A stretch of 64,000 nt of DNA from Psammoneis japonica (GCA_008632985.1 QPGO01000053.1:186001-250000), one strand, 5' to 3'; shown: positions 25,789 through 63,169, counted from the first letter of the stretch. Numbers and translations: made by a program. The notes: generated by a model from the letters alone, not told the origin.

Positions 25789-25820
<32 letters not shown>

Positions 25821-40825: not shown

Positions 40826-41194
40826 TCACACACATTGGTCACTTGACTTGCGGGCCATTGCCTCCGCCTTTCTGCGATTGCCAATTTGCCTTTTTGCCGC
40901 CTTTTTTGCCCATTCCTCCCAAGTTCCTGACCAATTTGAAGTGTCCATGTTGCCACCAGCAATCTGTTTCTTGACAAACATTGAGACGCTCCCATTGCTT
41001 GCCAATTCTGACGGACTGAGAAACTTCACCTGTGGAAAGAGATCATTTCTGGCCACCTTCTCCACTTCTGATTTCAATGCACCATGCGCTGCCTGCGCAC
41101 CTGTTCTCTTCAACACTGCCTGAAGTCTCAGGCTCATTGGCCCAATGGTCTCATTTTTCTTTCTCTTCTTTGCCGGTGGTGCTGGAGACGACAT
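40826..41194 (-). pseudogene. Hypermutated hypothetical gene (NLS-like PAKKRKK; VARNDLFPQVKFL motif)
   Basis: Protein-like ORF with no Tyr. A possible decayed donor GCAAGT (from GTAAGT) lies near 40851. Confidence 0.4.
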
Positions 41195-41899
41195 CTTGAT
41201 CTTTGCGCGGCAACAATCGAGAGCAGTGTTGCTGTTTGACAGTGCAACCGTCGTCTGGGTCGTGTTGAGACAGCCAGCCACTCCACTTTTCTCTGTGACA
41301 TTGCACAAATTGTTGTCAGCAACATTGAAATTTGAAAATGTGTTCACACATGACAATGAACAGTCCAACTTGCTTTTTGATGTGGCTGTCATTGCGTTTC
41401 AACGGAGACAATGTCCTTCATTTTGACAGCAAATAAAAAAGAACAACATTCACTGCAAATGCCAGATAAAAAATCAAAATGCAGACACGTCGTGCCTGTG
41501 AGAATCATCCAAATCTGCAAGACAATGTAATGTTTGCCATTTTCCCGCCATTTTTTGCGTGTTGTTCTTCTTTTCCCGTCTCATCCACAAGACAAGGACG
41601 ACGAGCATGAGTCTTGATGAAGGCCCTGTCAAGATTGACCAGAGAACTGTGAGGCAACGGCATCAGCACACAGACTTGGTCAGTCGCTGGCAGCTTGGCT
41701 TTCAACGCCTGAGAAGACTCAGTGCTCACCTGAGTCATGGGTTGTCCCTGTCGAAGCAATTGGGGACAATGTTTTGGTTTATGAACAATGTCCAGGAGCA
41801 GCAGAAGTGCAAGAAAAGGCCCCATTTGTTTGGGCTGCACAGGACAGAAGGAAGTGTTGGTCAGATTTGTTTCTAAAACAGGATGCGCGTGTCAATCTG

Positions 41900-42877
41900 T
41901 CATTCACTCACAGCAATTGCCTGACTCTTTCTTGCAAACATGATGAGTTTGATCCTTTCAGAATTGGCAAAGTCATTGCGGTGCACGTGAAGCAGTGCGG
42001 TGCGAGCACCTTCCGTTGCTTTTGTTCTGATGTCTTCTTCGGAAACTCCAAGATGAGCTTCTTCCTGATCGGAAGGCTTTCCCAACCACCGTTCTCGCTG
42101 TTCTTGGGTTGTGAGGTTGCTTGCAAAGAACACTTGGGTTGTGAGGTTGCTTGCAAAGAACACGCACATGTCGAACACAGCCGATAATTTCTTCCATTGT
42201 TTGACGACCTGGAAGAAGGTTGCAAGAGCAAAGGGAATCACTGTGTCCCCCCCTTCTTCGTTTTTGGAGAGCAAGGCCCAAAGATCAATTGGATTTTGGA
42301 AAAATTGAGTCGTCCCAAAACGACTGTTGCACCACTCTCCATCTGGCATCCAGCAGCAGTCCAACATGATTTGGTCGAACCCATGATTGTCGAAATCAAC
42401 AAGTTTCTCAAACTGCTGCTTGACTCTCTTGACAAAATCTCTTGCTTTCACATTGCAATTTAAGTGCAGATCAGGATGTCCATCTTGGAGAGAAACTGTT
42501 GGAACGACATTTGTGATTGTTTTGTCAGATTCCTCAAATGCCACTGCGCGGGCCTCGTCTCGCCTGTGTTGGTCGGACAACACCAAGGCCACCCCCTTCT
42601 CAGAGCACAATTCTTGAGAAGATAGTTGCCTTGCATTGAGCGGATGGGTCATCCCCAACCACAGCACATTGTGTGTTTCCCCGTCAGTTTCATCACTTGC
42701 GAAACAATCTCCTGAGTCGCTGTGGTCCTCTTCACCCTCGGAGCAATGTGCAACTTGGTTGTGCTCATCATCAACAGGCTCTTCGCTTTTGTCCTCTTCA
42801 CCCATGCAAGCAGTTGGAAGTTTGCTTGTTTTCTTGTCAATTGACTCCTCCTTGCAATCATTGTCACCTTTGTTCAT
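41900..42877 (-). pseudogene. Hypermutated gene, possibly Rossmann methyltransferase-like
   Basis: Acidic N-terminus, NVLWLGMTH, GFDQIMLDCCWMP, and an internal 30-bp tandem duplication (42103-42162). No Tyr. Confidence 0.4.
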
Positions 42878-43013
42878 TGCGAATGACAACAAATCACCGG
42901 CAGCCTTCTTCCTGTTAGAACGAGAAATCAATGTGATGATGTCAGCACAATCAGACAAAAAACAAATGTGATTGCCATGAAAAAGCAACCTCTCTTTGCC
43001 GTTCCAGTTCGGC

Positions 43014-46000
43014 TCAAACTTTGTCAATCGACACGAGTGGGACTGGCTCCCATTCATGCCTTCCAAACCGCTTGATCATTGATTGCCCATCAGAGAACAA
43101 GAGCAACAGATGCTGTCCGCAACAAAAGACATCGCAGATTCCCATCTTTTCACGAGCTGCACTCAGGTCACATGGCAAAGACTCTGGGCCATTCTTTCCA
43201 CAGTCTTCCAAATCAAAATCACCCTCTGTCCGTTCCAAGAGTAAATCACACTCCTCCACTGGGACCTTCATTTCCTCCATTTGCTTTGCCGCTCCCAACT
43301 TGGCCACCGGATGGACAAGATTACGAAGGTCAGGGTGAGGATGGATCCCTGTGCCACACAGCATCAATGTCTGCACAGAGTTCATGCATCTGAACTCTCC
43401 ACAATCAGCACCTGCATGATCCCATGTTTGGACCACGGTTTGAAACACATCCTCAATCACCTTGTGGTCAAACGTTGGCTTGCCAACATTGTCGTTGATC
43501 CAGTCGATGACAACAACCAGTCCGCCAACAAGCAAATCCATCAAACCGTTGAGTTTCGTCCTGCACTCTGCCACATGAACCTCCTCGAAATTGAGTCCCG
43601 GGCTCTGCATGCGTCGGTTGTTTCGATCCCCCGCAATGCTGCCGAACAGCCTCGCAGCTTCTCTGAAGTGATGAAGGACACGATCGCCAGCCACGAAAGG
43701 ATGCTTCACAGCATCTGTGTTGCACAACAAGCAGTGAAAACGGGAGAATCCGGTTTGACACCCAGCCACAACGGCACAACAAAAGCAATCATGTGCACCA
43801 ACCTCATCGAGGTTGTCAATGATTGCCGAACAACCGCGCAAGAAATTAAAGTCCTTCATGATGGCAAACGGAAGACATTTCCTCGGCATGACAATGACGG
43901 GATGCTCAACTGTGTCGGACGGAAGATTTGGCTTGCCAATTTCCTCTTCCACCCACACAGAGTGAGGGTCAAGGAAAAAATCTTTGATGTTTCTGTGGGT
44001 TGGCTTGCCCGACGGAGGACAACAAGGGCCGCGGCATCTCATCATTTCTGCAGCATGTGACAGATCAAGTTTTGCGAAATGACCATGCACACACAATTGG
44101 AACTCGGCATGCCCATGTGCCGAACTGACACAGTTTCCAGCATTGCCTTTGGATGCAGTGACAACCTTCAACGACCAAGAGCGACCAACAGTGTCTCGCA
44201 GTGATGAGCAAAGAGCACCAGTCTTGGTGCACCCATCCATGTCACAATCCTCTTTGTTGGTGTGCAGCTCAGTTTTCGAATTGACGGATTTTTTGCCGGA
44301 CGACGAGATGCACTTAACTTGAATTTCCATGCCTTCCCTTCTAATGTGCTTGGCTCCAACCATCTTACGGAGCTCAGCCGCGAAAAGACTGTCACGGTGC
44401 GGGTCATGGAAGGAACGCATTTCTTTCAATGCAACAAGATTAATTTTGTCCTCGCAGAGTTGCGTGGCATCCAAGATTGAGGCCATCATTGCCTGCACAT
44501 CCTTTGGAAGCTTCTCCCACTTGTCCCTGCCAAAGATGGCACCAGGCTTGTGAGCAGGTCCCACTTCAGCTAACTCACCGTCTGCAACTTCGTAATTCTG
44601 GCCACAACAACCAAAACAGATCCGACAGCGCAACTTGCATTCTGGTCCATCCCTTTTTTCGTTCGGCTCGCCATGTTCCAACACTGCACGGAGCATCGAC
44701 GACACACTGAATCGCAACCCAAAAAAGCATTTCTGATGCATCTTGTCCGTGTGTTGCAAACAAGTGACCACGTCGTGAGAGGTTGACTGGGTCGGGCAAG
44801 TGATCGCAACCATCGATTCTTGCGTCGGATCATTGGGAGCTGTGCCATTTTCAAATCCATGCACAAACTTGCAGAGGTGATTTGCCAAGTGGAAATCGGA
44901 GATGCTGTGGAATGGCTGGTGCTTGACACAGAATGGGGGTTTCCTCAAAGACGACAAGGCAAGAATGTTGTGACTTCACCTCACCCGGAATCGCAAACGG
45001 AGATGGTTCAGGAAACACTTTCACAAGCTCTTCTTTTGTGAAATTGTCTGGCGGAGGAGGAGGCAACTGATGAGTCATGCCGAGGGTCGGCCACTTTGTT
45101 CGGGAACATTCAAATTGTTCCTTGAGAGTCAGCACATCTTGGAGAATCAGCGATTTGTTCTGAGAAACATCAGAAGGTTCACCATCTTTGGGGTTTTTGA
45201 GACTGGGGCTTGAGGAGCAAAGGGAGGCGGCCAAAGAGGTGGCAAGAAGAATGGAAGAATTGGAGATGAGAAGAGGAGGACAAACAATCAATCAAACAAT
45301 GTGATGGATTCATGCCATTGGGATTTTTTCGTTTCCGAGCATTTTTCGTAACGGGTGGAATTGCATTGCCGATTTCTTTCTTCTTGTGCTGAGTGGCAAA
45401 GTCACGAAGCCTGGCTTTCCACACAGCCTCAAAACGATCCCTTGCAGCCTTGCCTTTGCCGGAATCGTCAGCGGCAGAAACCACACAATCAATTTTCACA
45501 CATCTTAAAAGAGTCTCATCGACATGTGTTGCACACATTTGTTCTTGCTCGACATCGAGCATTGCCAGTCGCACAGGCTTTTCCCAAGAATGTTTGTGTT
45601 GGCGGAACAACGACTTTACGAATTCAGGGAAGGACATGGGGCATTCGTCTTTGGTCATCTCACAGTGACCAAGAGCCAGGAAATTCTCCAAAAAGTTGAT
45701 GCAAGTCGAGGTCTTGTCACATTCGCCGAACAGGGAGCACAGCCAACAACTGCAACCACCATTCCTTTCAGGTGCGCACGGTGGAATCTTGTCACGAAGA
45801 ATCAAAAAACCAATGTGAAGGCATTGCGCGTGACGCAAAACCTTCCCTTCAAAACTTCTCAGCTCAATGTGCTTGACAAGTGGCTCTCCCTTTGGGTCGC
45901 ACAATCCGGGATCATGGAGAAGCTTGTGCAACATGGAAATCTTTGCCATCACGTTGGTTGCAATGTCTGTTGATTTTGCCTTGTCGCCGACAACTTTCAC

Positions 46001-46411
46001 ATCCTCTGCTTTGGGAGCACGGCGACACTCCAACGCATGAGGATGTTTGGCGCCTTGACTGGAATGACTCCATCCTTTTGCGGAAAGAAAGTGCAGCAAG
46101 CTCTTGCACCCAAGTTCCTTTGCAACAATGCAGTTCACAGCCATTGGTTCTACAAAAAAATGAGGTCTGCCCTTTGACTTTTGCCACACATGGGCAAGTG
46201 CGATCCAATTCGGAGAGGGATCACAAGTGGAATTGCGGTGAAACTGAACCTTGGATTTCACCGTCTCGATTGTCGCTTTGACACGGCTCCGCTCGTTGCT
46301 GTCGATCACTCCAAAACCGTTGGCAAAGAGAGATTCAAATGTGGCCTCCTCGAGGTGGGAATCATTGTTGTCTTGCAACTGAGAGGCAACCGATGGGTCA
46401 CGCAGCGCCAT
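43014..46411 (-). pseudogene. Large hypermutated gene (over 1000 codons) broken by a decayed intron (45315-45231) and a probable frameshift near 44950
   Basis: ORFs 45179-46699, 44851-45291 and 43014-44957 are collinear and protein-like. Almost no Tyr, with excess Cys/His. Confidence 0.55.
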
Positions 46412-48912
46412 GGTTGCTGTTCCAACACCAAAAAATCTGGTTTCTGTGGAAACATGCCAGAGTGGTGTGTGGGAGAAGTCACATGCGCACCAGGTGCGAT
46501 TTGGAGTTTTAAACACAAAAACCTGCCAGACGCGCATGTGACTTCTCCCAGGGAAATCCTGCGTGAGATTGTGCCGGGAAAGGGCAGTGCGGAGTGTAGA
46601 ACTGATGGAAGAAAATGTTGTGCAGAACAGTGCGTTAAGGCACGTGAAAAACAGGTGGGTGCCTTCAAGTGACGCATGCGAACAATCATAAAGAAACATT
46701 CAGAAATGGAGATGGCATGGAGAGAAGTCAGAAACATGGATCCAAAACAAAGTGACACAACAGAAAAAACAACAACAACAACTGGAGATGAAGGCAACGG
46801 CAATGGGATTGATGAAAAAGAAGGATTCGGATGGAAAGACGCCGGAGACAGTGAAAACAGGCAGGGCCAAGACGAGGAAGGAAGAGAAAAATGGGACGGG
46901 CAAAATGAAGAAAGACAAAAAGAAGCCGATGACACGACATCAAGAGGGGAGCAGCAGTGCGATTCAGCATTTCGAGGGACCTCTTTCTCTCGATGATGTT
47001 CACCCAAATGCAAGAAATGCAGTGTGGCTTTTTTGGAACGGTGACGAGGAAACATCCAACGCGGCAGCAGCATGTTTGAAATTCTTGCAAGAGAGCGGAC
47101 AAGACACATGGAATGAAGAGGACGATGCGGACGACTGGGCAAATTGGAGCACAGTTGTTGATTGAACAATTGGTGCACACTTTGCATGATGAAAATTTCA
47201 TTGCATGCAGTTGCAATGTTTGGCTTGTCGTCAAAGATCGTCAGTTGTTTTGAAAAAGGCAGAGCACAAAAATTAAAATGCATCTGTGTTCAAACATGAA
47301 GAACAGCAGGAGACCAATGATCAACTGAATGACAAAAACCGTCATGTGCAGACAAGTAGATTTTACAACATGGCAATGTGTTTTTGTCATGTGTGCAGAC
47401 ATTACGATGTTGTGCACTCTGATGGAAACAGCCCTTGTGTGACAGCAATTCAAGTCTGGTGCACCAACATGGTGCGAGCTGCAGCATGATGCTGTCCTGC
47501 TTTCCTCCCCTTGTGGCAGCTGTGCTCAGTGGACAAGGGTCTTTTGTGTGCAGGGGTGTTGCACTCATTGAGGGGTTGCAGTGCATTGACAATGGTGCAC
47601 AGGAGGGGTTTGGCAGATGTTGTGTTGAGCGAACACGGAGCCCTGTGCATGGCACCGCCCACTGAGCCATTGACACAGATGTTGATGTGGGCCAGTTGGC
47701 ACTGCTGATCAGGGCTTGGATGTGGATCTAGTGTGATGTGGGGGGCACTGGGACTGCCAAGTTGGTTGTGGGTTGCAGGGGCAGCGGCGCATGCTTTGGC
47801 ACCTGAGTGGCAGCTAAAAGCAAATGCACAGCAGAGGCAGTGGCACAATGTTGTTTTGCACCAACTTGGTGTTTGCATGTTTGTTGATGGCATCAGCATC
47901 AGTGCAAAAGAAACATGGTGATGAGTTGGGTCAGCCCATGGGGGAAGTTGTGTGAATGTCACCACTGCTGACAGAGAGTCTCACCTGGTGTGCTTGGGAA
48001 GATGACCTCAAGCTGGTTGTGGGCATGATCTCAGGTGCACTCGCCCCTTGCTGGCAGGATGCACCTCAACAAGTGATCCAATGTGCCGGTGCATGAAACC
48101 CTCATGGCTTCCACAAAAGAATGGGGTTGGCCTGCCAACTCAATTTTTGGATCCTCAATTCACCACAGATCCAAGGGGTGGACACCACCAATGATGAATG
48201 CCACCCTTTTCCAATGCTTTGCCTTGTCATGCTCTCTGATCTGTGCATCGTCAAAGCCCTTCTAAAAACTGTTGGGGTGGCTTTCTATCTCCCCTCCAAT
48301 GGACCCATGCAGCCCACTTGTTGTGCGCGCCATTTGTTGTTGAGCACCATGATTCTGAAACTCAGAAGTCTTCACAGCATCGCGATGGTGAAGCAGAGGT
48401 GAAGGCTGTCCACTCACAATCAGATGACTGCCTGGTGAGAGACAGGGGGCGCATTGAACATCTTGCTCACTCAACACATCATCTTCACAATTGATTGGCC
48501 TTGGTTAAACCCATGTTAAAGTCCAGCATTCGAGAAGCAAAACCTTTTGCTGCCAGAGGCACGAGAATCGGGTGATGCCGATCTTGGCCAATTGCCATGC
48601 TCCTGCCGCATTGTCAGTGTGCTGGGGGTGTGGGTTAGCTTGTTGCTGGAGAAGCAGGGTGGAAGCGCAGCAGCACTTCAAAAACAGATTTTAGGTTTTG
48701 TTTTGTTTGTTGTTGAGTGGCAGACAATCGATGTCTCCAACAATTAATCTGGGTCCATGCGGCAGTTCGTCATCCAAAGACTGGGCAGATGCTTTGCACA
48801 AAGCCTGACATTTCATTGCATTTCCATGTTCATCTGGTCACTTTTCCTTCTTTTGCAGGTTCTGTGCCAACTGTCCCACAAAGTTTGGCATGCAAAAGCG
48901 AAAAGATGGTTT

Positions 48913-49571
48913 GGAATTGGCAATGGCCTTCCCACGCCATGCATGAATCCAAACGCTCCACCGAGACCTCCTGTGTTGCCTTGTCGTCAATCCGCAGTGT
49001 GAAATCCATGCTCCTTGATTTTTCCATCTGCGTTGAAATCCAAGTGATGAATTTGGGGTGGATGGATGATCTCTTTTCCTGTTGCCTCAGCACCCATGAA
49101 GGGTCCCTTGTGAATGCCCTTGACACGGTTCATGAACCACACATGATTGGTTTGAAGAGGATCAACTCGCAAGCCACAAAAGTTGGCTGAAATGTCAAAG
49201 GCCGACTCCAAATCAAAGTCACCAAGGGAATTGAGATGGGCATCTCGGGGAATGGGCCCAACAACTGCTGCACAGAATTCAAAATCATCGGCCAAACACT
49301 CCCCGCTGTCCTTGGCACCGAGACCGACGCTGGGACTTGGCACTTGTTTGGCGCGTTCCAGCAACTGCTCCGGGGGAATCGCAAAGTTAGAGGCTTGCAA
49401 GAGCTTTTCTTCATTGAGGAAGCTTTCGTCAAACATGGCGGTTTCTGTTGGTTCAATGGCGGCTTTGTCGGCGAACAAAGAAACCGTTGCAACACGATTG
49501 ACGGTGCTTGTTGCAGGAGCAAACGCCAAAGCATGGCCAGCAAGAGCAAGAGAAGTGAGATGAAGCTTCAT
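48913..49571 (-). pseudogene. Pseudogene of a host-type plastid-targeted protein of unknown function
   Basis: MKLHLTSLALAGHALA|FAP bipartite signal; LADDFEFCAAVVGP; GLRVDP. An in-frame TGA at 48989-48987 is followed by the continued motif RQGNTGGLGGAFG..HGVGRPLPIP. Confidence 0.7.
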
Positions 49572-49682
49572 GGTGCTGTCGTTTTGGCAGATGCATGCCA
49601 AGCACAGAGGACAGAAAATGCAGTTGCGTCGCTGCTGAGTCGTCTTCATTTGTTGTCGTCATCTCATCTTCAATCTGTCAAA

Positions 49683-49892
49683 TTGGGGGAAGTCTCCAGC
49701 CAGCTGCTGGCTGAAAAAAGTCTGCTCGTCAGTGCGTTTGGAGGTTTTGCAAGTGCAATTTTTACGCACACAAAATGAGACAAGTCTGACCAGTGTTCAC
49801 CAAAACCCCCTGATGCACAGATTGACAGACTCTTTCAGTGCAATTTCTACACAAAATTTTTCAGCCAGCAACTGGCTGGAGACTTCCCCCAA
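49683..49892. mobile_element. MITE-like element with 36-bp terminal inverted repeats
   Basis: ttgggggaagtctccagccagctgctggctgaaaaa (49683-49718) versus the reverse complement of 49857-49892: one mismatch. No clear TSD. Confidence 0.6.
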
Positions 49893-50859
49893 AATGCGAA
49901 ATGACAAGAGTGTTGGAACCGCACGAGGTGCGGACCCACTTCTGCCGGCAGTTGTTTGCATTGGCCCGGTGTGCCACACAATCTCCAACTCATTGTGTCA
50001 TGTCATCCTGGCAGCTTGACTCAGTGCCAAGCAATGGGCCCAACAATGGTGTCCCTGCTCACTTGCGCCAGCCAGCAAGAGGGCAGCACCAAAACCAGAG
50101 TCGGTCAAAAGGCAGAGAGTGGAGGAAGAAGGGGCCAAAACAGGTTCCAACAGGTGCCTGTCAGGATCTGTTGCGTGCTGCAGCGCCGCATGATGAAACA
50201 TCAGCAAACAAAAGAAGCAATTGCAAAAACTTCCAAGGCTGTTGCTGGCTGCACCGGGAACAATGGCAGTGGTGGTGCAAGAGACTCTTGGACCAAACCG
50301 CCCAACTTTGGACCAAAGCCAGTTGCAGAAGAACACCAGACAAAATGCCGCACCAACACAACTCAAAAGTTGGAGAGCAGCCTGCAAAGTTTTCCAGGAC
50401 CATGAGCAGTCCCACAGGAAAACCTCACAACTGGGTCTTTCCACTGATCCTTGGCCAGTGCACATGCCCCCCACCCCCTGCAAAATTGAGCGGAGGTGCG
50501 CACGAGATGAAGGCTGGGCAGAAAGCTGTCACAGAGAGTTGAGGCTCCACAGCAGATGTGGCTGAAGTCAGTTTGAGCTGATTTGCAGAGCTGTGTGATG
50601 CCACAGAAAAAATGCCATTGCTGATGCTGAGCTCACCCTGCTCACCTTTTGTCAATCTTGCCAAATGTCTGTTGCACGCTGGTCTGCACAGTTTGTTTCT
50701 TTGTGTCTCTGTGGGGGCTGCTGTTGCAGCTGCTCTTTTCAACTGACCCACACATTCACAATGACCTTTGTTGCTGCTGCACTCTTGTCATGGTCAAAAC
50801 TTGCAGGCAGGAGGTCAGAAGAGGTCATGGACAAGTTGGTCATGCCAAAGTGAGAGGAC

Positions 50860-51360
50860 CTCATGATGTTGCCAACCAACCTGACAACAGCAAGCTGGGG
50901 GCACAGGCTGGCAGTCTCTCCCTGGTGCCCCCCCCCCCAGGCAACACTTCAAGAACCATGGTTGAGCAGCAGTGCAGTGTTGATCTTTTGGCATTGCAGC
51001 CCCATGTCACCTTGTCCAGATGGAAGAAGCAGGATTCTTGAACTTCCAAACTCCAAAATGAAAGGATCTCATGATGGTGCCAACTGGCCTGACAACAGCG
51101 GCAAAGCCACAGTGCAAGAAGAACCCCATGTGACAGTGCCGGCTAACCTGACAACAGCAAGCTGAGCGCATTGGTGATGTCTGGCAGGTGGACCCCAGAC
51201 AACAGCTTGAGAACTGTGGCTGAGGATTGCAAGGTTGATCTTGTGGTGTTTTGGCCCCACTTTTCACTCTGTTCCCAACAGCAGCAGACTTGAGTTTCCA
51301 ACCTCCAGAGTGCAAGGTCCCCAAGACAGTGCCAGCCATCCCGACAACAGCAAGCTGAGA
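50860..51360. repeat. Degenerate tandem array with an about 200-bp unit anchored by cctgacaacagcaagctg
   Basis: Motif at about 50880, 51088, 51147 and 51341. Segments 50880-51087 and 51147-51340 are homologous. Confidence 0.65.
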
Positions 51361-52937
51361 AAAATTTCAAGCAAGAATGAACCCTGTGGAGGATTGGCTG
51401 GGATGTGAGTCAGAAATGTGAAACTGCACTCTTTGTTGATTGTTTCACACATGCACAATTTTTGGAGGATTGCACCCTTGTCAAGCTCGCCTGCGGTGAG
51501 TTGTTGAGTGAGACTTCATGGCCCCAACCCCATTGATGACACGGCTGCTGCATTGTGGCATCAGTTGCCTGTGCCAACCTTTGCATGCAGTCTCAATGCC
51601 AAACAAGTTTTCTGTTGCCAAAGTGCCTTGGCTGTAATGGCCACTCATGCAGCCTTGGTCCTGAAGTTGGGTGCGTGGAGAACACCCACCTTTCTTTCCA
51701 ATGAGCAAGTTGGTGCCAGCACTTCAACAAGCACAACATCCAAATGACCCTGTGCAATCTTCTGCAAGAGACAAAACTGGTGCACTCATGCACAGAGCAA
51801 CAAGAAAGAGCTGTGCAAACAGTGTGGACAAAATTTGGTGTTGGCTGGCAGAAATCCAATGCCACAGCTGAAACAGAGTGCAGTGCGCAAGAACGGGCCA
51901 AAACAAAAACACAAAATCAGATCACAGCCATGTTGGCCCCAACAACTTGGCACCCCAAAAAATGTTTGTGGTGCATTTGTTGTCAATTGACAGCTTCAAA
52001 GTGGTGCTGCTGAATGATGAAGCACAGAGATTGACCCACACTGTGGTCCAGGTTGATGTTGAAATTTGTCAAATTGTGATGCAATGACAAGATCAAGTCA
52101 GTCAAGTGGCACTCATTGCAACAGGCAGCACAAATGGCAACAGGGATTGAATGATGACATGGACTTTGTGGGGGCTGCTTGACATTTTGTGAGCTGGGCT
52201 CTGGAGTGCAAATTGACACACTGGGTGGAAGGAAAGGTCTCAAGGAGGAATTTGCAGCTGCGCTGTCTGTTGCAATGGGAGGTTGGTTCAATGAGAAGTT
52301 TGTTTTTTGAAGGGAGAGTCTTTTTCATTGTTGTGAAACATGTGACAAGAACACAGCAGATTGCAGCAACAGGGGTGCTTCATTGTCATGCAAACAGCGG
52401 ATCAGCGGCTGAGTTGTGTGGTGCCCAATGCAGCACGACAAAGAGACAAGTGCAGGAGAGACATGAAAAAATGCAGTGTGGGCAACCAAGCTGAAGCTCC
52501 TCCAAACAAACAAATCAACCCTGAACAAGATGCTGAGAGCCACAAAACAAAACACCGCGTGAGACAAGCCCACGGCCGCTGGAAAAATCAACTGTCAAAA
52601 CCCAGCAAATGATGACTTTGGCAATGCCAGGCCACTTGTGGCTGAAAATGAGCTGGTGAATCAAAACACAACTTTTTCTGGCACACTTCTTTTGCCACCA
52701 TTTCTCAGTTTTTTGCTGTTGGCTTTTTTTTGTTTTCCTTTGCAGCCAGGTCGCCTGTCTTTTGTCCTCGCAGTTCTGCCACACAACCAATCCTTTGTGT
52801 TCTCCAGATGTCAGAAAGCTTTGTCAGAGAGTTGTGTCATGAAACAGTTAAGAACCAATCATTGCGATCTCACGGTGATTGGTTGTGGCTATGAGAGTTG
52901 TGAAACGGCAGAAGCGACGCTCTGCGGGGGGGTGCCG

Positions 52938-53213
52938 TGACAGAAATTGAAGGCAAATGGCAAGAATTCAAACAATGACTCCTTGCTGCTGTCTAAATGG
53001 CAGATGAGTCTCCGCTCAGAGACTGTTGCAGGAGCCGAAAGACGTGCAAGTCGGTGCAATCGGGCTGCTGTCATTGTTCTTGTGAGCCTTGTGACTCGAA
53101 AGCAAACTGCATCGCGCGTGAACGCGCGGAACCAAAGCACACAAAACTGTGCGCGGCAAACTAAACAGCGCGCGACACTTCGCGCGCACCCAAATCCTGT
53201 TCAAATCCTGTCA
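52938..53213 (-). repeat. 3' LTR (hypermutated copy)
   Basis: Aligns without gaps to 59769-60044 at offset 6831; only 2 TA remain. Confidence 0.95.
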
Positions 53214-56200
53214 CTCCCCAGTTTGCTTGAGGAGTCACAGAAACAGATTCGACTTCGGATGGAATGAAGTTCCAGAACATGAGGGGGCGGAGAAGGTCCC
53301 AGATTTGGGAGCAACCCCAATGCTTGCTGAGAATGTCAGCAGGGTTGCGGGAGCCTTCGATGAAGTGGAGCTCAAGGTGGCCAGAGGCAATTGCCTCACG
53401 CACACGGTGGAATGACAGTGCGGTGTGTCGCTTGTGTAACTTGGAGTGCGGGATGGTGGCACTGTCTACAACCGACTTGTTGTCACCGAACATGCAACCA
53501 ACATTGCGGATCGGGACGCCAAGGCAGCGCAGGGTGATGCGCAGGTCGACAATCTGCTCAACACAAGTCCTTGCGGCAACAAATTCAGACCTGCAGGTCG
53601 CAGTCTCCACGGTGGCTGGCTTCTTAGAGAACCAATCAGCTGGGAATTTGTTGAGGAAGTGGAGCATTCCCATGACAGAGCGTCCGGTGAGCATGCAATG
53701 GTGCAAGTTTGCATCGACGCAGTGGGTGGTGGTGACGAACTTGCCAAGGGGCGGTGGAGCGTCCTTCGGGATCATCTCTTCTGCTTCGCCATACACGGAA
53801 TGCATCCATTCACAGGCCGGAGCAGGGAGATCCGAACAGTCGGGCTCTTCCGTGCGAACGCGGAGAGCACCGTGTCGCATCTTGGAGAGGCACCCACAGA
53901 CGCGTTTGGCACGATCCAAGTGGCCCTGACGGGGCGCAGCTCGGAAGCTAGAGAGTGACATGACGGCCGTGGCAATGTCAATTCGACCAAGGGACACTGC
54001 CCATTGGAGTGAACCAACAAGAGACTGGAACTTGTGAATGCCATCGGGTCCCAGCAGTTCGGAAGTGTCCAGTTCGGGGTGGTCACCCTTCTCCAGAGGT
54101 GACAGGGCGTTGGTGGCAGGTTTCTCCCCAAACAGTCGGGTGCAGCTGTCGACCATGCGCTCGATGTACTTGCGCGGAGACAGGCACAAGGTTCCGTCGG
54201 GATCCCGGGAAAAGTCGCAACCCAGATGGAACTCAATGGGTCCCGCACCCTTGAGCTTGAACTTGCACTTTTCCGTGAGAGTGTCGACGAAAGATTGAGG
54301 GTCCTTCATGGCAATGGCGAGGTCATCCACACAAACGGCAATGCATTCACAGTGGTCGCCGTTCCTGCGCATCCAAATGTCGGGTTTGGCGCGGCAGGGG
54401 AAGAAGCCTTCAGCTCGCAGGCAGTCGGCGAAGCGCTCGTGCCAGCGGAGACCGGAGCTGCGCAGTCCACACAGTGCCTTGTGGATGACAAGGATGTGTC
54501 CTTCGAGTTTGCCAAATTCGGGTCCGGCTGCAATGCAAAGCTTCTCCTTGGTGGTGGCTTCAAGGTGGGCATTGCCAATGTCGGTGGCCCATGTCTCCAA
54601 CTCGTTGAGTTCGGCCAGGAAAATCATCAGCCGAAGGCCACGGAGGGAGACTACTCCGGAGCAGACACTGTCGATGGGTACGTCCGTGAGGTGCCCGTCG
54701 GCTGCGAGTCGTGCCTTGTGGCGACCGTCGTGTTTCACGTCGCACACCAGGTGCACTCGGATCTTCTTGTGTCCCGCAGGAGGAGTGGAAGACTTGAAGG
54801 GCCCGCAGTCATGGAAGACTTCGTATTCGTCGAGTTGGTCCATCTCGAGATTAGTTGCGTCTCCCCACTTGCGGTTGCCGTTGCATTCGTCCAGTGACAT
54901 GGCGTGTTTGTAGTTCCGGGGAACTTCGCATCCGCACTTGTAGCGAGGTGCAGTGCGGAAGGAGCGAAGCTTGGCTTGGTTGGCCATGCGAAATAGCTTC
55001 TTTTGGCGCCTCGCGATGGTGCGGAACCGCTTCCAGCCATCCGTGTCGAGGAGTCCGTTCTCTCGTGCGTAGATGGCACAGGTGACGGGGTCGTCCTTGG
55101 CGATGATGGCAAGAGGCTCGGACGTGATCTCCCCACTTTCCCATTCAAGCATGATGTTGTAGCTTGAGCCTTTCCAGGTTGGGTCGTGAGGCTTCAGAGG
55201 TCCTTCGTGTGACACGATGCGTCGAAATTTCCAAATGGTGGTGTCTTCGTCTTCTTGCTCAATGTGATTCATGATGTCATTGCAGGCAAGGACTTCCTCG
55301 CATTCGTCATTGTTGACAGAGCAGACGAACCCAGTGAGCTCAGGATTGCTGTTCACTTTCCATTCGTGGTCTTCGACGGCCTTGACGATGCGAGCTCTGT
55401 GGCGTTGTCCGTCCTCTTGTGGCTGCATGAGGAAGGCACGTCCAATGATGTCTTGTGGATCGAAAACTGGCATCTTGGGTGTCCTGATCTCCCCATCAGG
55501 AGAATCGACGGGGTTGTCGTCATGGCGAGATTTGATGATGGGTTCAGGTGGCTCCCCATCAGGAGGATCAAGACGCAGGTTTTGAACGGCAGGATCGGTG
55601 GCAGCGGAGCGGACGTTGGACCGGCAGAGGATCTTCTGAGTCTCGTCAGATAGAATCTTGAAGGTCATCTGGTGGCCGACGTGCTCAGCAATGCCAACGA
55701 AGCGTCCACGCAACTCACGGGATTCGGACGGCCAATCGGAGTCATCGAGGTGGAAGCACACGGGTTCCCACCAGTGAAAGCGAAGCAATGGGCTGATGTC
55801 CGGGGTGGAGCCAGCGAGAGTCTCGAGGGGCGTGCGCCAGTGGAGACGTGGGGATGCTGTGTGGTTGAGTGTGAAGCACACGCACATGAGCGCCAGCAGC
55901 CATGTGTGGGCGGGCGAACCAAAACGATCCATGACGGTGTTCGCCATGCGCTTCACGGTCTGGTGTCGATGCTCGGCAAAGTTTTGGTGTTGCTGGTGAG
56001 GCTCACTTTGCCAGCTGGAGATGAAGAGGGCGCGTAGGATCCCAAGCACTTTGTTGCTGATCTCAACTTGAGCACGGTCGCTAATGAGTTTGGATGGGGC
56101 ACCACGTTCACGGATCTGATCCTCAAGTGTGTTGACAAACTCTTTGTCCGTCTTAGTGCCGTAGACGTCAGTGACGGTAGACTCGGTGCCAACAAACAGT

Positions 56201-58829
56201 TGGGCGCTGGTGCAACCAAAGTCGATGGCCGGGGTGTCGGCACAAACGGTGTCAGTGGCGACAGGCTCGTTGCAGCAGTGCACATTGAGGGCGGGGTTGG
56301 GTGATTTGTAGGCCTTCCTAAGGTGTGTGCCGGCGGGCATGCGGGCGCACTGCGTGGTGCAGTCAAAAGTACGACGGACCGCATCGGCAGGTGGGAAGCC
56401 AAAGCAAGGCCGAAGAGATGCGAAGGGGGGGTCCTTGGGCTGCACAGTGCGCTCCGGAGGCGGAACGTCATCGTCCTTGGGGTCAATCGCATGTAGATGA
56501 CACTCGTAGAACACGTCGTCGTTCGGAATGAGGTGATCATTGAGGGCGGACGCGTGATCGGCAGACAAGGAAGCGGACATGATGGTCTCGTTGACAACGA
56601 CACGATGGCGGCAGTTGCCGCATTCGTCAAATGGGTTGGCAGTGGGATCGTCCTGCAGGTCAGAGATCGCGTCGCACCACTGGTCGTCGTCAGTGACAGA
56701 GTGATCGAGGACGGAAGGGTCCCATGTGTCATCACCGGTGAGGATGACATGGGGCAGGGTGTCCCATTCGGCATCAGTGTAAGGTCGCATGGCAACATGA
56801 GGCAGGCCGGCCTTGATGTCAATGGGGATGACACAGCCATCAGGAGTGGCAATGCGTTGCAAGCCGTTGGGCACCTTGACAGAGCGATCGTTGAATCCTG
56901 TTTGTGCCATTCGAGCTGGCCGCAGGAATGGATGGTCTTGCCCTTGCCCGTGTGTGCGCACTGATGGAGGATGGCGATGACGGGACCACGCTGGGTCTCA
57001 ATGACGGCACCAGCGGTGACAACAGGGATGTCCACCAATTGATGATCGTCAATGCCCTGAACGTCGACTTGGCGAGAGGTGCGTGCAATGACGCGAACGT
57101 CGTCGCCAGCAATGCCGCCGTTGGCCCCACGATCGACTAGAGCGCCAGTGCGTGTGAAGCGATGAGCAGAGGCAGAGCAAATGACATTGTGGTTGTTGAC
57201 GTGGTGGCAAGTGCGGCCGTTAAGTTCTGTGTCATCTGCAGAAGCTGGCGGGGCAGAGGAAGCGGCGGATGGCCCCGGTCGATTAGCATTGGGGGCTTGG
57301 TTAGGAGACAACAGACGTTGCAGATCACCGGGTGGCAGTGGCTTGCGCTTGGTGAGGTGCACCAGGATGGGATCATCCGAAGTGGCGTCCACATTTGGAG
57401 CGGAGTCACCAGAGTCAGCAGGAGTCGTGTTGGACAAGTTGACATCACCGTCACTCCCAAGGCGTTGGTCGTGAAGGTTGGCCGCAACAGACTCATGGTA
57501 GTTGCTGGCTCGCGGGTTGCGGGGAGGCGGACGAGAATGCTCAAGGATGATCGCCTTGGAGGAATCGGGCAATGAATCCCAGATCCGTTGGTGGTCGGGA
57601 GGGAGACGTCTCCATTGGTCACCGGTGAGGCTGGGACCGCGGGTGCAGGCAGCATTGGCCTGAAGGACGTCAATGTCGCTGTCAATGTCGTAGAACACAT
57701 CGTCGGATGGTTCCTCGGAGCAGACGTCGTGTGCGCACATGGCGCGTCGGGGAGCTCGAGGTGTCGTCTTGGGTTGAAACGCACTGTCATGCTGAGCTGC
57801 CGCGGAGAGGAGCAAGCCACAGTGTTGATCGCATGTGAGGCTCTTGCCACTCTGCGCACGATGCTGATCAGCTTGGTTCTTGACAGCACGGAGTTCCTCG
57901 ACAGGGTGCACGGCATTCTCGAGCATGACGCGCTTCTGTCCTTCAGAGAAGTGGTCACTGGCCGGGATGAGTGCCTCGCACTTGCGCAACTGATCTTGCC
58001 AATGAAGGATGAACCCGTGGGTCAGACCTTTCCAAGTGCCATCACCAAGACGTGCGGTGGCAAGGTGCGTGAGCAGGGTGGAGGACTCGACAGATGCGCG
58101 GGTGGAGGCAAGCACGTGCTCAGACAAGGCGCGGCAGACGGTCTGTGTGTCAGAAGACCCCACATTTTCGCGAATGAGAGCCTTGCCCTTGTCGGTGAGA
58201 AGGATGCGTTCAAAGACGGCGAACATGTGCTTTTGCTGTTCAGCAAAGAGCAGTTTGTCTTCGGGGCTGGTCGGTTTGTACGACGAGTCTAGAGTGCACT
58301 CGATGTCTTGGGCACGGGCTTGTGCCACAAGTGAGGTGTGCCAAGTGTGCCACTGCTTGTCTGATTTGAGAGCCGTGAAAGCGGTGGGATCACGCTTGAT
58401 GCCTCGCTTGAAGTCCCGCACCGGGTCGCGTGCCTTGGTCGGGTTGGTGACATGCGGAGGTGCAAGGGGTGAGCTGCCGATGGACACAGAAGACATGCAG
58501 TCGGGGCTGAGGCGGCAGGCAAGGAACTCGTCATGCGTGAACAAAGAGGAGTCGTTGGCAACGTCAAGACCTTTGTGTGCTTTGACAATGCACAGACCAA
58601 CTAGTGCTGCTAACATGTTCTTATGACCACGGGGCAAAGGGATCACATTGGTGCCGTTGTCGTGCTCAAGCGAGTCAATTTGGGACGGTGTGAACGTGAA
58701 TGGTTCCTGACACGAGTCCGTGCCGTCTTGGGCCAAAGCCAAACGAAGAGGACTCCCAGCACCTTGGGCAAGCACGGTTCCAACAACGTGCTCGAAACCA
58801 TCGGTTTGTTGCTGACGAGTGAGAACCAT
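53161..58829 (-). pseudogene. Copia gag-pol, inactivated by a 1-nt frameshift near 56895 and Tyr->Cys/His hypermutation
   Basis: Protease ALVDRGANGG. Integrase VATDT..ADT, LISDRAQVE, SEPHQQHQNFAE. RT KARLAADGH, DIGNAHL, CVDD. RNase H VDANL, SEFVAAR, GDNKSV, NPADILSK. Frames join as EWHKQD/(V)NDRSVKV. Confidence 0.92.
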
Positions 58830-59768
58830 GGTGGACAAAAGTGGTGTCAGGACAATCAATTCTGGTTGGGAAGCGAAGGTAGACTCGAAACTTGGGTGAG
58901 AATGGACTTGACTTGAAATGGACTTGACTTGAAATCTTGAACTATCTTAAAATCAGAAGTCGCCGGGCTTTGCTGTCCCGTTCGTTGTCAAGTGCTAAAC
59001 TTCCCATCCGGTCCGCAGAGTTGTGCCGGCACGTCCGAACCCGCAGCTGGCGGTGCTTTGGGTTGCTTGCGAGCGGAGTGGCAGGTTGTAAACCCCTGCA
59101 GGCAAGCTGACTAGAGGTGGACAAGACCCCCAAACCGTTCTTATTTTGTGTCGGTTGGATTTCCCGATCAGGCTGGCCAGTTGACGCAGGCGTCAGGCGC
59201 TGTGGACGAACGAACAAACGCGGGAAAGCACCCTCGCCCCAATGCAGGCTGCAATCACGGCTGCTTGCTCTCACAGTCATCCTCGTGGACCTGGTGGAAC
59301 TGTAGAGCACCAGTGGTCTGGGGTAGATCAGGCACAATGGACTCGGTGTGCTTGTAGAGTGGCAGCAAAACCGCAGTCCGAAGAGTGGGTAAAGGTTCTT
59401 GGCCGTGAAGATGTGTGTGTGCACACATGTCTTCAGCGACTAAGATCCTTGAATGTGCAGGGTTCTTGACCGTCAACCGAGGAACAGGCACATCAAGGGA
59501 TGTTGATCAAGGATGGACTTGGATGTGACCGTTGAATGCATGTCTTCAGCGATCAAAGGTGGCACAATCAATCCAGATGTCCAGCGGCAAGGAGACTTGA
59601 CGGTGACGTTAACTTCCTGCCGATGCCCTGGCATTGAATGTGCGCAGACTTGCCGATGTATGTAGGACATATACGGAGGTCCACGTAGGATTGAAATAGC
59701 GTTGTTGGTAAATCAACGACGATGATGGCGGTTGCTCAATGGGTTGACAATGAGCAAGACTGTCAATC

Positions 59769-60044
59769 AGACAGAAATTGAAGGCAAATGGCAAGAATTC
59801 AAACAATAACTCCTTACTGCTGTCTAAATAGCAGATGAGTCTCCGCTCAGAGACCGTTACAGGAGCCGAAAGACGTGTAAGTCGGTATAATCGGGCTACT
59901 GTTGTTATTCTTGTGAGCCTTGTGACTCGAAAGCAAACTACATCGCGCGTGAACGCGCGGAACTAAAGCACACAAAACTGTGCGCGGTAAACTAAACAGC
60001 GCGCGATACTTCGCGCGCACCCAAATCCTGTTCAAATCCTGTCA
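59769..60044 (-). repeat. 5' LTR (largely unmutated copy)
   Basis: Aligns to 52938-53213 and retains 15 TA dinucleotides. Confidence 0.95.
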
Positions 60045-60838
60045 TGCCGCGCCGGGAGGCGAGGGGTGTCGTTGTCCGTTCGTCTAACCCGCGTGTGTGA
60101 TGTCCCCTTCCTTTCCGTCAAGTACCTGGCTGTGTGACTTCGCGGAGACAGCGATTGTTGGTCGTGAGTTGAACTTGTCCACGTGGCGCGAGAAGAGTAA
60201 GTCGGTCACCGCGAAAGATTAGGACTATGTACCGCGTGTCGTTCAATTGTCGTACAACCGTCGTAGGAAGGACACAAGATCGATTGCTGTTCTGTTCTCC
60301 CGTATTCTTCTGAGGCGGGAGCCGTTACAAGGTGTCATATCGGTTTTAAGGTCTCTGAATAATTGTTTGAAATTTTCGCGCCAAAAGTAACCGCTGTGAC
60401 ATGGACCCATAAATCCGGTTTACGCCGGCCTCGTAAAATTGCACCCCTGGCTGCAAAAATTGAAGCTCGTCACCACCCTTCACGATTGACCCGACCCAGT
60501 CGCACTTTTGCGTCCTACCAAAAGACCGTAGGATTGAACGAATGTGTTCTTTGTCATTGGAACGCTTTCCGCTTCTCATCGGCTCAGCAGGTTTCAACGT
60601 TGGTTGGATGCCAGAGGTGCCGTCGATCATATTTTGCGAACACTGCATGTCAGAACACTATTACCGTCTTGGGTCAAGTAGAATTCGAGAACACTGACTG
60701 TCAGAAAGGTTGCCATAAAAAGTAGGAAGCAAGTGAATGTAACAGAACTCCTTTTGTTGCATTGAAACTGCTAGTCGAGAAGCTGCAAAGATAGCCCTAC
60801 CCATACAAGCACGACACAAGCAACCGCGATTAAACATC

Positions 60839-61261
60839 ATGGTTCGATTCGAGCTAAAGCCACGCGACTACAAGATCGACAGAACGGCTCCAACCATGAC
60901 GACCAGTCAAGACATCAAAAATAATCAAGAAGAAGACTTTCCTTTTGTTCTGACAGTCCCTCAGAAGGAAGATTGGTTCTTCCTGCAGACTCCCCAAGAA
61001 GTGGGCCGACGAAAGAAAGTGATCCCCATCAAGAGAAGGCGAAGAACACCATTTTTGTTACCAAGATCTTCACTGACTTTTTTGCAAACACGTTCAATGC
61101 GAACACTACAGCAACCACACATAATACAGCCACAACGAAACATCATTCCAATCGAGAGTGACGAGGATGAATTCAACGATTTCCAAGAAGAGCAACGACC
61201 AACACCAGTAGCTTCACCACCCCCGCTCTACTTTACACCTGTGGCCACCACCACAAGTTGA
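60839..61261 (+). CDS. Small hypothetical protein
   Basis: 140-aa ATG-initiated ORF converging on eIF2B-delta. No recognised domain. Confidence 0.45.
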   Translation: MVRFELKPRDYKIDRTAPTMTTSQDIKNNQEEDFPFVLTVPQKEDWFFLQTPQEVGRRKKVIPIKRRRRTPFLLPRSSLTFLQTRSMRTLQQPHIIQPQRNIIPIESDEDEFNDFQEEQRPTPVASPPPLYFTPVATTTS

Positions 61262-61369: not shown

Positions 61370-62770
61370 TTAGCTCGCTCCTCCTTGTGGATTCATTTCT
61401 CTCAATAGCACTGCCACACTGGTGGGAGGCAGTATTCCCATTTCAGTCACAATACCGCTGACAAAGTCGGCGGGTGTCAAATCGTACATGAGATTCAACA
61501 GCTTGAGATTGGGCGTTTGTTTCCAAACCTTGTCAATCTCGGGCCCCGACACACAGTCGGGGTTGCCCAATTCGTTTCCCGTGATGCTTTCCAGTTGCAC
61601 CCGGGTAGACATTTTGTACGTTTCGCAACACACCAGTACCGGTTTGTCTGCCTGAGTCGCCATGAGTGCCACACAAGCCGTCCCGACGCGGCTCAAGACG
61701 GATCCGTCACTCAACAGAGCCGATGCTCCCAGAAACACCTTGGTGACTTCCTTGAGAACATAAGACAGTGAGTTCAGCAAGATGTACGTGCATTCAATTC
61801 CGGCTTGTCGAAGTTCTTGCAACATGGTCTTGCCCTCGAGAAGTGGTCGCGAGTCTACCACCACAACTGAAAAGTTAGTGGTCTTGTGTGCCTCGGCGAG
61901 AAGAATCGCAATCACTTGACTGTATCCATAAATCAAAATAACATCTCCATTCACAATCTTGGAGGACGCATGCTCCGATATCGCTCGATCGGCAAAGTCG
62001 ATCCGTTCTCGTTCGTATGCTCGAATCGTTTCCGCCAATACATTCACCACTTCATCCTTGCTCACATGCCGATCCAACGCGGCCACTGCTGACTTGAGCA
62101 GCGTAAACGCATTACCCATACTAACAGAATGAGGACGACAGTGTTGTGCCCAAAAGTTAAAGCTTGGCTTGAGTACGGTCGTATCCAAATCTTGACGAAC
62201 ATCCTTGCAGTCCGGCGGTGGTTCGTAGTCTTGCAAGACGGCTTCAAAGGCAGAGAGCATGGCCCGACAACGTTCATTGCCACCCCGAATCGTGCCCTTG
62301 GCATACAACAAGCCAACCTGCAAGACTGCGGGGTGGAGTGTCTTGTGGTGATGGCTACTCGTGGTAGTCTCGACGCCAAGCGTCACACCTCGTGATGGGA
62401 AACGATCCAATCCATAGTATGGAGGTAAATGAGAAAAGAGTGAGACGGTCTTATCGTCCTCTTTATTTTTTGAAGTATCCGATTCAGAAGTTTTCGTCTG
62501 TTGTTTTGTATCAGTCTTTTTACTTGGAGATTTTCCTTGTTGTTGCTGCTGTTGCGGTTGCTTTTTGCTTTGATTGGGTTTGCCTCCACCACCCTTTTCT
62601 GCTTTTGCTTTTCGTTGTGCTTCCTGCAAGGCTCTTCGTTCTGCTTTGCTAAGTTTGGGCTTCTTGGGCGGAATCACCAGGTCCTTTGGCTTTTCCTTTT
62701 TCTTTTTCCCTTGTGCGGGAGCAGCTGCAGGAGCCGGTGCAGGAGCAGAAGCGGCCGCTTCCTCCGTCAT
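61370..62770 (-). CDS. EIF2B4: Translation initiation factor eIF2B subunit delta
   Basis: SKAERRALQEAQR, LFSHLP, HPAVLQVGL..GGNERCRAML, CRPHSVSMGNA, VVVDSRPLLEG, SRVGTA, VCCETYK, YDLTPADF..VTEMGILPPTSV. Confidence 0.93.
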   Translation of the reverse strand: MTEEAAASAPAPAPAAAPAQGKKKKEKPKDLVIPPKKPKLSKAERRALQEAQRKAKAEKGGGGKPNQSKKQPQQQQQQGKSPSKKTDTKQQTKTSESDTSKNKEDDKTVSLFSHLPPYYGLDRFPSRGVTLGVETTTSSHHHKTLHPAVLQVGLLYAKGTIRGGNERCRAMLSAFEAVLQDYEPPPDCKDVRQDLDTTVLKPSFNFWAQHCRPHSVSMGNAFTLLKSAVAALDRHVSKDEVVNVLAETIRAYERERIDFADRAISEHASSKIVNGDVILIYGYSQVIAILLAEAHKTTNFSVVVVDSRPLLEGKTMLQELRQAGIECTYILLNSLSYVLKEVTKVFLGASALLSDGSVLSRVGTACVALMATQADKPVLVCCETYKMSTRVQLESITGNELGNPDCVSGPEIDKVWKQTPNLKLLNLMYDLTPADFVSGIVTEMGILPPTSVAVLLREMNPQGGAS

Positions 62771-63169
62771 GGTCAGTTTTTTGCAGGGTTAACTAATTGC
62801 AAAGTTTTCTGCAGCTATGGGTGGGGACGCCGTAGAAATCACGTAGGTGCTATTTTTTTAGAAAAATCAACCTCGCTGCCCAAATGGACCATGGCGGTCG
62901 TCAACCACCTCACACAAAAAAGTGTCATCATCACGATTCATAAGACTCAACGTGCGGTCACAACGCGCAAGGCCGGGCTTCCAACTCCCGCCACAACGTT
63001 AGCTATGCGACCACCAAGTCAACCTACCGTTTCTCACCAAATCGCTCTCGTACCCTCAGGATCATTATAAAAAGTTGTACTTTCGATACCATCGTGTCCG
63101 CCGTGATTGAATTAGGCGGGGTGCACCGAAGTACAACTTTTGGCGGCAGTTTCATCGAGTAGTTTTGAA

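Follow-up and report, generated by a model that had tools for sequence, protein, structure and literature searches.

Why does a copia-type retrotransposon of the diatom Psammoneis japonica encode cysteine or histidine at catalytic tyrosines of its pol product, in a frame that is still open? The element lies within a stretch of 64,000 nucleotides (GCA_008632985.1 QPGO01000053.1:186001-250000), here called the window and numbered from its first letter. The original prediction, made from the sequence, was that these residues mark ancestral TA dinucleotides that had been mutated on both strands. We conclude, with a probability of roughly 80%, that a transposon island of this genome, the copia element included, underwent hypermutation of TpA to TpG or CpA (A:T to G:C) after the element had integrated. 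The change is specific in sequence, has one direction, post-dates integration, affected both strands, and is confined to bounded domains next to host genes.

The element is a Ty1/copia-type long terminal repeat (LTR) retrotransposon of 7.1 kb, on the minus strand at window positions 52938-60044. The assignment rests on a Pfam match to RVT_2 (PF07727, E = 2.3e-21) in the pol frame, indicating a copia-type reverse transcriptase, and on direct LTRs with TG...CA ends and a 5-bp target-site duplication. Both LTRs are 276 nt long and they are 94% identical; the first base of the LTR at 59769 is A and not T. The intact pair of TGCCG target-site duplications argues for a single insertion and against a chimera or recombinant of two copies. 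The parts of the element are as follows.

52933-52937, no strand: target-site duplication TGCCG, left copy
52938-53213, minus strand: 3' LTR, the inner one, within the TA-free domain (TG...CA on the plus strand; 2 TA, 20 CG)
53161-56997, minus strand: stop-free pol frame of 1278 amino acids (RVT_2 at residues 740-951; residues 36-1243 align with relatives)
54322-54333, minus strand: the YVDD catalytic box, read as CVDD (TGT at 54333-54331)
56894-56895, minus strand: 1-nt deletion that splits the gag-protease frame from the pol frame; the relatives lack this frameshift
56895-58946, minus strand: gag-protease part, upstream and in a different frame (open frame 55953-58946)
59769-60044, minus strand: 5' LTR at the domain edge, almost unmutated (15 TA, 21 CG)
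60045-60049, no strand: target-site duplication TGCCG, right copy

The pol frame had 1861 homologues, the best with 65-73% identity. Metagenome gag-pol polyproteins were 55-67% identical to it overall, and up to 73% in the part comprising reverse transcriptase and RNase H. These relatives have a single continuous gag-pol open reading frame (ORF) of ~1850-1900 amino acids. No integrase family of Pfam was found in the pol frame at E <= 0.01; residues 36-700 align with full-length relatives.

The tyrosines of pol were replaced wholesale, mostly by cysteine. All ten peptides quoted in the original prediction were found in the translation of 53161-56997 (minus strand), and CVDD is encoded at 54333-54322, as had been claimed. 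Compared to the consensus of 21 relatives, cysteine or histidine in the window replaces tyrosine in YEYIAVYVDD, DSVYSGVV, DIGNAYL, KALYGLRSSG, HYVDANL, ETATYGSEF, LRYLGVP and KHWGYSQ, and alanine replaces the valine of KARLVADG. At the cysteine of HLVCDV, the consensus has phenylalanine and one relative (P0002) has tyrosine. We then aligned the pol frame with 77 relatives that span it fully, out of 120 listed matches (43 shorter or partial ones were omitted). The window agreed with 416 of the 461 columns that were at least 90% conserved and disagreed with 45. Conserved tyrosines were changed in 16 of 21 columns (14 Cys, 1 His, 1 Phe), compared to 29 of 440 columns for all other residues (Fisher p = 6e-14; p = 3e-11 for Tyr to Cys alone). 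Lower thresholds gave similar fractions: 28/35 tyrosines were changed at 70% conservation (22 to Cys) and 34/43 at 50% (24 to Cys, 4 to His).

The change was specific to T-A and was not a general A to G mutation. At the columns that were at least 90% conserved, other exchanges caused by A to G at the second codon position were absent for Asn to Ser (0/14), His to Arg (0/17), Asp to Gly (0/31) and Glu to Gly (0/28), a combined 0/90. Lys to Arg was found in 2/18 and Gln to Arg in 1/14. An excess of I>V/M/T, V>A and L>P/S had been expected in addition to that of Y>C; the excess of Y>C was strong, and the others were hardly seen at these columns (one I>M, one I>V, one V>A, and no L>P/S).

The protein footprint follows from the genetic code. 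The only sense amino acid with codons that begin with TA is tyrosine (TAY, where Y is a pyrimidine), so loss of TA appears as wholesale replacement of tyrosine by cysteine. The pol frame now has 11 tyrosine (TAY), 48 cysteine (TGY) and 60 histidine (CAY) codons, and 28 TA dinucleotides where its base composition predicts 174 (ratio of observed to expected, rho, 0.16). Across gag-pol, 72 tyrosines of one relative (P0003) correspond in the window to 13 tyrosines, 31 cysteines, 11 histidines and 5 phenylalanines. C is absent from all stop codons, and a G can appear only inside an existing stop, so these changes cannot create stop codons. A dead gene thereby keeps a long open frame with its catalytic tyrosines lost.

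The two LTRs show when and how the changes were made. LTRs of an element are identical at the time of integration. The pair differed at 16 of 275 columns, corresponding to 15 events. In 13 of these, the edge LTR (59769-60044) has TA and the inner LTR has TG (8) or CA (5); of the two remaining, one is TG versus CA and one is CG versus TG. There was no event of another kind and no transversion. In the inner LTR, 14 of ~16 ancestral TA sites were converted, compared to none of ~201 positions outside TA and CG (Fisher p = 3e-20) and 1 of 21 CG sites. Because the LTRs differ almost solely at TA, it was integrated DNA that was changed, on both of its strands, and the per-site rate was far above that of background mutation or of CpG decay. 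Since 15/15 LTR differences are hypermutation or CpG events, dating by LTR divergence would badly overestimate the age of the insertion.

That TA was the ancestral state was borne out in three ways: 13 sites that are TG or CA in the inner LTR are still TA in the edge LTR; few if any of the 77 relatives have lost tyrosine at the changed columns; and at the G of CVDD (54332 on the plus strand), other copies in one sequencing run (X1) read T, giving TAT for tyrosine, in 82% of their word depth. Both strands had been hit, as predicted, but unequally: the LTR outcomes were 8 TG and 5 CA, and the tyrosine outcomes across gag-pol were 31 Cys and 11 His (binomial p = 0.003). We also agree with the earlier argument that the element could not have transposed with these changes, since the LTR divergence post-dates integration and a 1-nt frameshift lies near 56894 besides.

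The loss of TA is a property of the DNA domain and is not peculiar to pol. Two TA-free domains were found in the window.

5111-17460, no strand: TA-free domain 1 (13 TA in 5600-16900, with 754 expected; CpG rho 0.09-0.24)
39070-59500, no strand: TA-free domain 2 (0-9 TA per 500 nt, compared to ~20 outside)

Observed and expected numbers of TA were as follows.

5600-16900: 13 observed, 754 expected
39100-52937: 52 observed, 900 expected
copia interior: 35 observed, 241 expected
gene-bearing DNA between the domains: 845 observed, 1401 expected

Domain 2 covers older relics that could not be annotated together with the greater part of the copia element, and its transition zone lies at ~58600-59600. 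TpG and CpA were in excess inside the TA-free domains (rho 1.2-2.0 in domain 2, with a maximum of 2.0-2.2). CpG rho was 0.09-0.24 in the older relics and ~0.9 in the copia element. The TA dinucleotides that survive in the copia interior (53214-59000) were clumped, with 9 in 54652-55160 and 11 in 56035-56507, which may reflect sequence context or some local protection. The density of TA climbs from ~58.6 kb, and the loss fades over ~1 kb within the element towards the gene side. The 5' LTR at that edge is nearly untouched, although the two LTRs are repeated to an equal extent (the LTR bins had the highest depth in the sequencing runs described below).

The boundaries of the domains were sharp and lay within ~100-200 nt of the ends of host ORFs (17464 compared to a P450 ORF at 17673; 38967/39070 compared to an ORF end at 38853). 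The host genes (peptidase C69, P450, HECT, RING, UPF1, CENP-I and eIF2B) were all in DNA with normal TA. The eIF2B-delta gene (61373-62788) has named homologues exclusively in diatoms, with 46-56% identity, which places the window in a diatom; its ESM Atlas clusters were pan-eukaryotic and carried no information on lineage. A Pfam scan of the 67 window ORFs of at least 150 amino acids found the copia reverse transcriptase as the sole match within the two islands. Stop triplets in the islands were 1501 TGA, 94 TAA and 64 TAG, compared to 1135, 496 and 520 outside. That nearly all island stops are TGA explains the abundance of long spurious frames.

The bases on either side of TA affected how often it was lost. 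Survival of TA in the islands relative to non-island DNA was 0.53 for TTAA, 0.28 for CTAA/TTAG, 0.01 for ATAC/GTAT and 0 for ATAT, and the surviving island sites were mostly YTAR (R, purine). Gains of TG were larger where a pyrimidine follows. Among 28 directly inferred events (13 from the LTRs and 15 from comparisons between copies), the base 3' of the mutated A was C in 13, T in 8, G in 5 and A in 2. A purine preceded 7/11 of the histidine outcomes compared to 11/31 of the cysteine outcomes, and C-TAC was the most resistant tyrosine context (8/13 retained Tyr). The preference for TAY explains why tyrosine codons went mainly to cysteine (31, versus 11 to histidine).

Other copies of the element could be compared with the one in the window. 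We compared contigs of four sequencing runs (X1-X4), from one sample and one study, with window positions 52000-61000. In the unique flanks (52000-52964, within the TA-free domain, and 60017-61000) there were no differences and no mixed calls, at a depth of 59-84. Over the element, summed word depth (which is not the same as copy number) was 57,000-232,000, compared to 59 in the flank, indicating a very abundant family. The relic DNA of low depth at 52000-52900 is TA-free. At 54332, T (giving TAT) accounted for all of the depth in X3 and X4 and for 11.5/19.2 in X2, so most other copies in the sample keep the tyrosine of YVDD; active members with cysteine or histidine there would have spoken against a mutational origin of the change.

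Differences between copies at the listed places in X1 comprised 312 transitions and 27 transversions. Among 40 places displayed, the window had TG or CA in 16 where the others have CG, and in 10 where the others have TA. In 5 places the window has TA and most others have TG or CA, in 2 the window has CG, and 7 belonged to other classes. Differences among TA, TG and CA thus run both ways, and each copy bears its own subset of TA hits. An extra base at 56894-56895, the site of the frameshift, was present in 18% of X1 depth, 34% of X2 depth and the one contig of X4. Many copies may share the frameshift, either through a mutated master copy or as a programmed frameshift.

The same signature was found in a few relatives from metagenomes. 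TA rho was 0.45-1.13 in 78 of 80 related metagenome loci; the two TA-poor loci were L003 (1-2766; rho 0.01) and L004 (1-2561; rho 0.31). Tyrosine was replaced by cysteine or histidine at 20/35 sites in L003 and at 9/31 in L004, compared to a median fraction of 0.03. Among the 77 aligned proteins, P0054 had 8 cysteines and 5 histidines at 36 tyrosine columns. The nearest nucleotide relatives of L003, L004 and the window copy among the 80 loci were less than 70% identical. These comparisons suggest that the process also acts in other hosts of the element lineage and is not confined to this species. Loci with record names of the same accession series as L003 and L004 had normal TA (L007, rho 0.83; L027, rho 0.88).

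We propose the following sequence of events. The copia element would have inserted once, at the edge of a pre-existing transposon island in the diatom genome, and the island DNA, element included, would then have undergone conversion of TpA to TpG or CpA. Conversion would be fastest at TAY, with a pyrimidine 3' of the A, and slowest at YTAR sites such as TTAA. Hits on the opposite strand would give the less frequent change of tyrosine to histidine, and the YVDD box would be among the sites changed. Since the edge 5' LTR escaped although both LTRs are equally repeated, what governs the process appears to be the silenced chromatin of the island and not sequence homology.

The agent may be an adenine deaminase of the TadA/ADAT2 type that acts on DNA, an identification to which we give somewhat less than even odds. 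TadA and ADAT enzymes target an adenine that follows U or T and, for TadA, precedes C; their natural substrate is tRNA (adenosine-34). The preference for T-A-Y matches these enzymes, with the difference that their known natural substrate is tRNA.

A process with the same signature has been described in the chlorarachniophyte Bigelowiella natans. In mutation-accumulation lines of this alga, 231 of 302 new mutations were reported to lie in two integrated viral regions, and 230 of the 231 were A to G or T to C, all of these on TpA, at ~6e-7 per site per generation (Mettrop et al., 2026, bioRxiv 10.64898/2026.01.13.699255). The same preprint reports 124 TpA-depleted clusters, with RT and DDE Pfam domains enriched among TpA-depleted genes, and proposes an ADAT2 homologue as the candidate enzyme. 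As reported for these giant-virus and virophage insertions, the changes in the window are nearly all A:T to G:C, occur on TpA only with TpG or CpA as the outcome depending on strand, are confined to particular non-host regions, and have led to long-term depletion of TpA with a gain of CpA and TpG. There are also differences. The host here is a diatom. The rate reported for B. natans, orders of magnitude above background, comes from real-time mutation data, whereas the ratio obtained here is indirect (14 of ~16 TA sites changed, compared to none of ~201 other LTR positions). The viral insertions of B. natans reportedly still have 3.3% TpA, whereas the LTR retrotransposon islands here are near saturation (rho 0.02-0.16). 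A search of the main text of the preprint for the terms 'context', 'trinucleotide', 'flanking', 'LTR', 'retrotransposon' and 'diatom' found none of them (bioRxiv 10.64898/2026.01.13.699255). From the shared signature, the two appear to be the same kind of process.

Several other systems resemble this one in part. Repeat-induced point mutation (RIP) of ascomycetes is described as making dinucleotide-specific transitions on both strands of transposon DNA after integration, leaving islands of aberrant composition. However, it runs in the opposite direction: C:G to T:A changes make TpA from CpA and TpG, and make stop codons, whereas here TpA is destroyed and no stops arise. The RIP literature that we found all describes this opposite direction. 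The excess of TpA that is the hallmark of RIP was absent from the window (TA rho 0.02-0.16, with TG and CA in excess). RIP is also described as triggered by homology, whereas here one of two repeated LTRs was spared, which speaks against such a trigger unless gene conversion restored that LTR. Many diatoms have DNMT4, a relative of RID, which takes part in fungal RIP (Hoguin et al. 2023, PMC9998398), but a cytosine methyltransferase could not, as far as we can see, account for A:T to G:C changes. Decay of CpG by deamination of 5-methylcytosine also ends in TpG and CpA, and it is present here too, but it cannot remove TpA and was slower per site (1/21 CG compared to 14 of ~16 TA in the LTR). 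Editing of vertebrate LTR retrotransposons by APOBEC proteins (PMC4866542) is likewise a deaminase-type hypermutation seen in integrated LTR elements. Those footprints are reported to be G to A, strand-specific and made at the stage of reverse transcription, unlike the post-integration A:T to G:C changes on both strands found here.

In the literature searched, there was no account of TpA-depleting or relevant RIP-like hypermutation of diatom transposable elements, and TpA-specific A:T to G:C hypermutation of invading DNA had one prior description, in one rhizarian alga. What is new is the same signature in a diatom, on LTR retrotransposons and near completion. The window adds a preference in flanking bases (TAY fastest, YTAR slowest) that points to an enzyme class, proof from an LTR pair of action after integration, and evidence that position in a domain, and not repetition, decides which DNA is targeted. 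In practice, the long open frames left in mutated elements mean that annotation will take them for intact genes, and TA-free islands escape homology-based repeat masking. A broader reading is that diatoms have a homology-independent defence acting on chromatin domains, in which a TadA/ADAT2-type deaminase erases TAY in silenced islands, and that it is the same system as in Bigelowiella, old and widespread among the protists of the stramenopile, alveolate and rhizarian (SAR) group. We regard this as tentative and, taken as a whole, rather unlikely. If true, a SAR-wide, TAY-erasing defence would be a mirror image of fungal RIP, killing coding capacity by changing tyrosine to cysteine without making stops.

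Several considerations weigh against hypermutation of the island as we have described it. The process is known here from sequence alone. B. natans is linked to this case solely by the signature; it belongs to another lineage, and the targets described there are integrated viruses and not LTR elements. Gene conversion by an unmutated copy is another possible source of the nearly intact 5' LTR. The preference for TAY rests on 28 events and on normalisation to non-island DNA, and the split of preceding purines and pyrimidines between histidine and cysteine outcomes carries no significance value. Runs X1-X4 may be the source sample of the assembly itself, in which case their agreement with it is not independent proof against a platform artefact, and depth summed over contigs is not copy number. 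Finally, the classes of difference between copies come from 40 displayed of 347 differing places, and there the CpG-type differences (16) outnumber the TA-type ones (10), indicating a contribution from a second process, ordinary decay.

The alternative that survives best keeps the process at the level of DNA and changes the base that is attacked. A TET/JBP-type oxidase would convert thymine at (R)TpA in silenced DNA to 5-hydroxymethyl- or 5-formyl-uracil, which mispairs with G and gives T to C. Some protists oxidise thymine in their DNA, and 5-formyluracil induces T to C mutation. An A followed by a pyrimidine on one strand is a T preceded by a purine on the other, so the context and LTR data fit equally well. 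We nonetheless consider attack on thymine improbable, as no feature of the window favours a modified thymine and the T-A(-C) context fits the natural substrate of TadA and ADAT enzymes. The authors of the B. natans study also favour adenine deamination, as a proposal (bioRxiv 10.64898/2026.01.13.699255).

Slightly less probable again is a homology-dependent, RIP-like trigger, by which copies were mutated for being repeated and not for their position. The islands do consist of transposon relics, and the family is very abundant, with a summed depth at least ~1000 times that of the flanks. However, 15 TA remain in the 5' LTR and 2 in the equally repeated 3' LTR, the loss of TA fades over ~1 kb within the element towards the gene side, and the relic at 52000-52900 is TA-free at low depth. 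In B. natans, the main target is reported to be single-copy (bioRxiv 10.64898/2026.01.13.699255).

It is very unlikely that the missing TA dinucleotides are an artefact of sequencing or assembly, in which a modified base at TpA in silenced DNA was systematically misread. Confinement to domains is what would be expected of a modification linked to chromatin, and the window and X1-X4 may derive from one sample. Against this, contigs at a depth of 59-84 match the TA-free unique flank without differences or mixed calls, other copies of the same family read TA at the same positions, and unrelated metagenome assemblies hold TA-free relatives with the same tyrosine footprint. In B. natans, the changes are reported to arise de novo and to differ between lines (bioRxiv 10.64898/2026.01.13.699255).

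A-to-I editing of the retrotransposon RNA by an ADAR- or ADAT-like enzyme, fixed by reverse transcription before integration, has a probability still lower than that of the artefact. Such enzymes typically prefer a 5' U, and editing with this preference was first considered for the asymmetry between cysteine and histidine, with A to G on the coding strand dominating at tyrosine codons (31 Cys, 11 His). It was rejected on the comparison of the LTRs: changes made before integration would match in both LTRs, whereas 14/15 LTR differences were of the TA type. In addition, both strands were hit, other A contexts were untouched, and older relic DNA in which no coding sequence is recognisable is equally TA-free.

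That cysteine and histidine are the natural state of an active sub-family can be practically dismissed, for although the 1278-amino-acid frame is open and 416/461 conserved columns are unchanged, the pattern occurred in none of the 77 relatives except the partly affected P0054, most copies in the sample read tyrosine in YVDD, the copy carries a frameshift, and an open frame is expected anyway because A to G and T to C make no stops. GC-biased gene conversion was rejected, as it would not be specific to TpA and this DNA also shows CpG to TpG changes, which have the opposite direction. We rejected selection against UpA too, as it would not replace catalytic tyrosines.

Domain 1 contains what is probably a much older element. 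Degenerate direct repeats at 6911-7154 and 14389-14632 are 75% identical over 249 nt and lie 7.5 kb apart, and are probably its LTR pair. Among the differences between them are 11 TG/CA sites, 28 other transitions and 40 transversions. The original prediction had also described a gypsy relic with HVDD in place of YxDD. Two HVDD-coding sites are indeed present on the minus strand (9641-9652 and 15559-15570), and the first of these sits between the two repeats. Their identity as gypsy was not confirmed, as read-throughs of 804 amino acids (with X at stops) had no Pfam match at E up to 0.1.

The left edge of domain 1 falls inside an ORF with a Hint module (4353-5384, minus strand; PF01079, E = 2.3e-27, residues 137-297). 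TA dinucleotides are frequent at 4353-4560 and sparser to 4990, and one is present in 4990-5384. This gradient may mean that the process has leaked into a host gene at its 5' part, or that the start was wrongly assigned.

Some smaller repeats were found in the gene-bearing DNA. A direct repeat of 235 nt (32021-32255 and 35173-35405; 84% identical), in gene DNA with normal TA, may be a small mobile element or a duplicated intron. Local duplications at 23534-23702 (92-nt units, 77 nt apart, 92% identical) and at 25620-25812 (33-nt units, 160 nt apart) adjoin two paralogous RING-finger ORFs (24323-25090 and 26142-26864).

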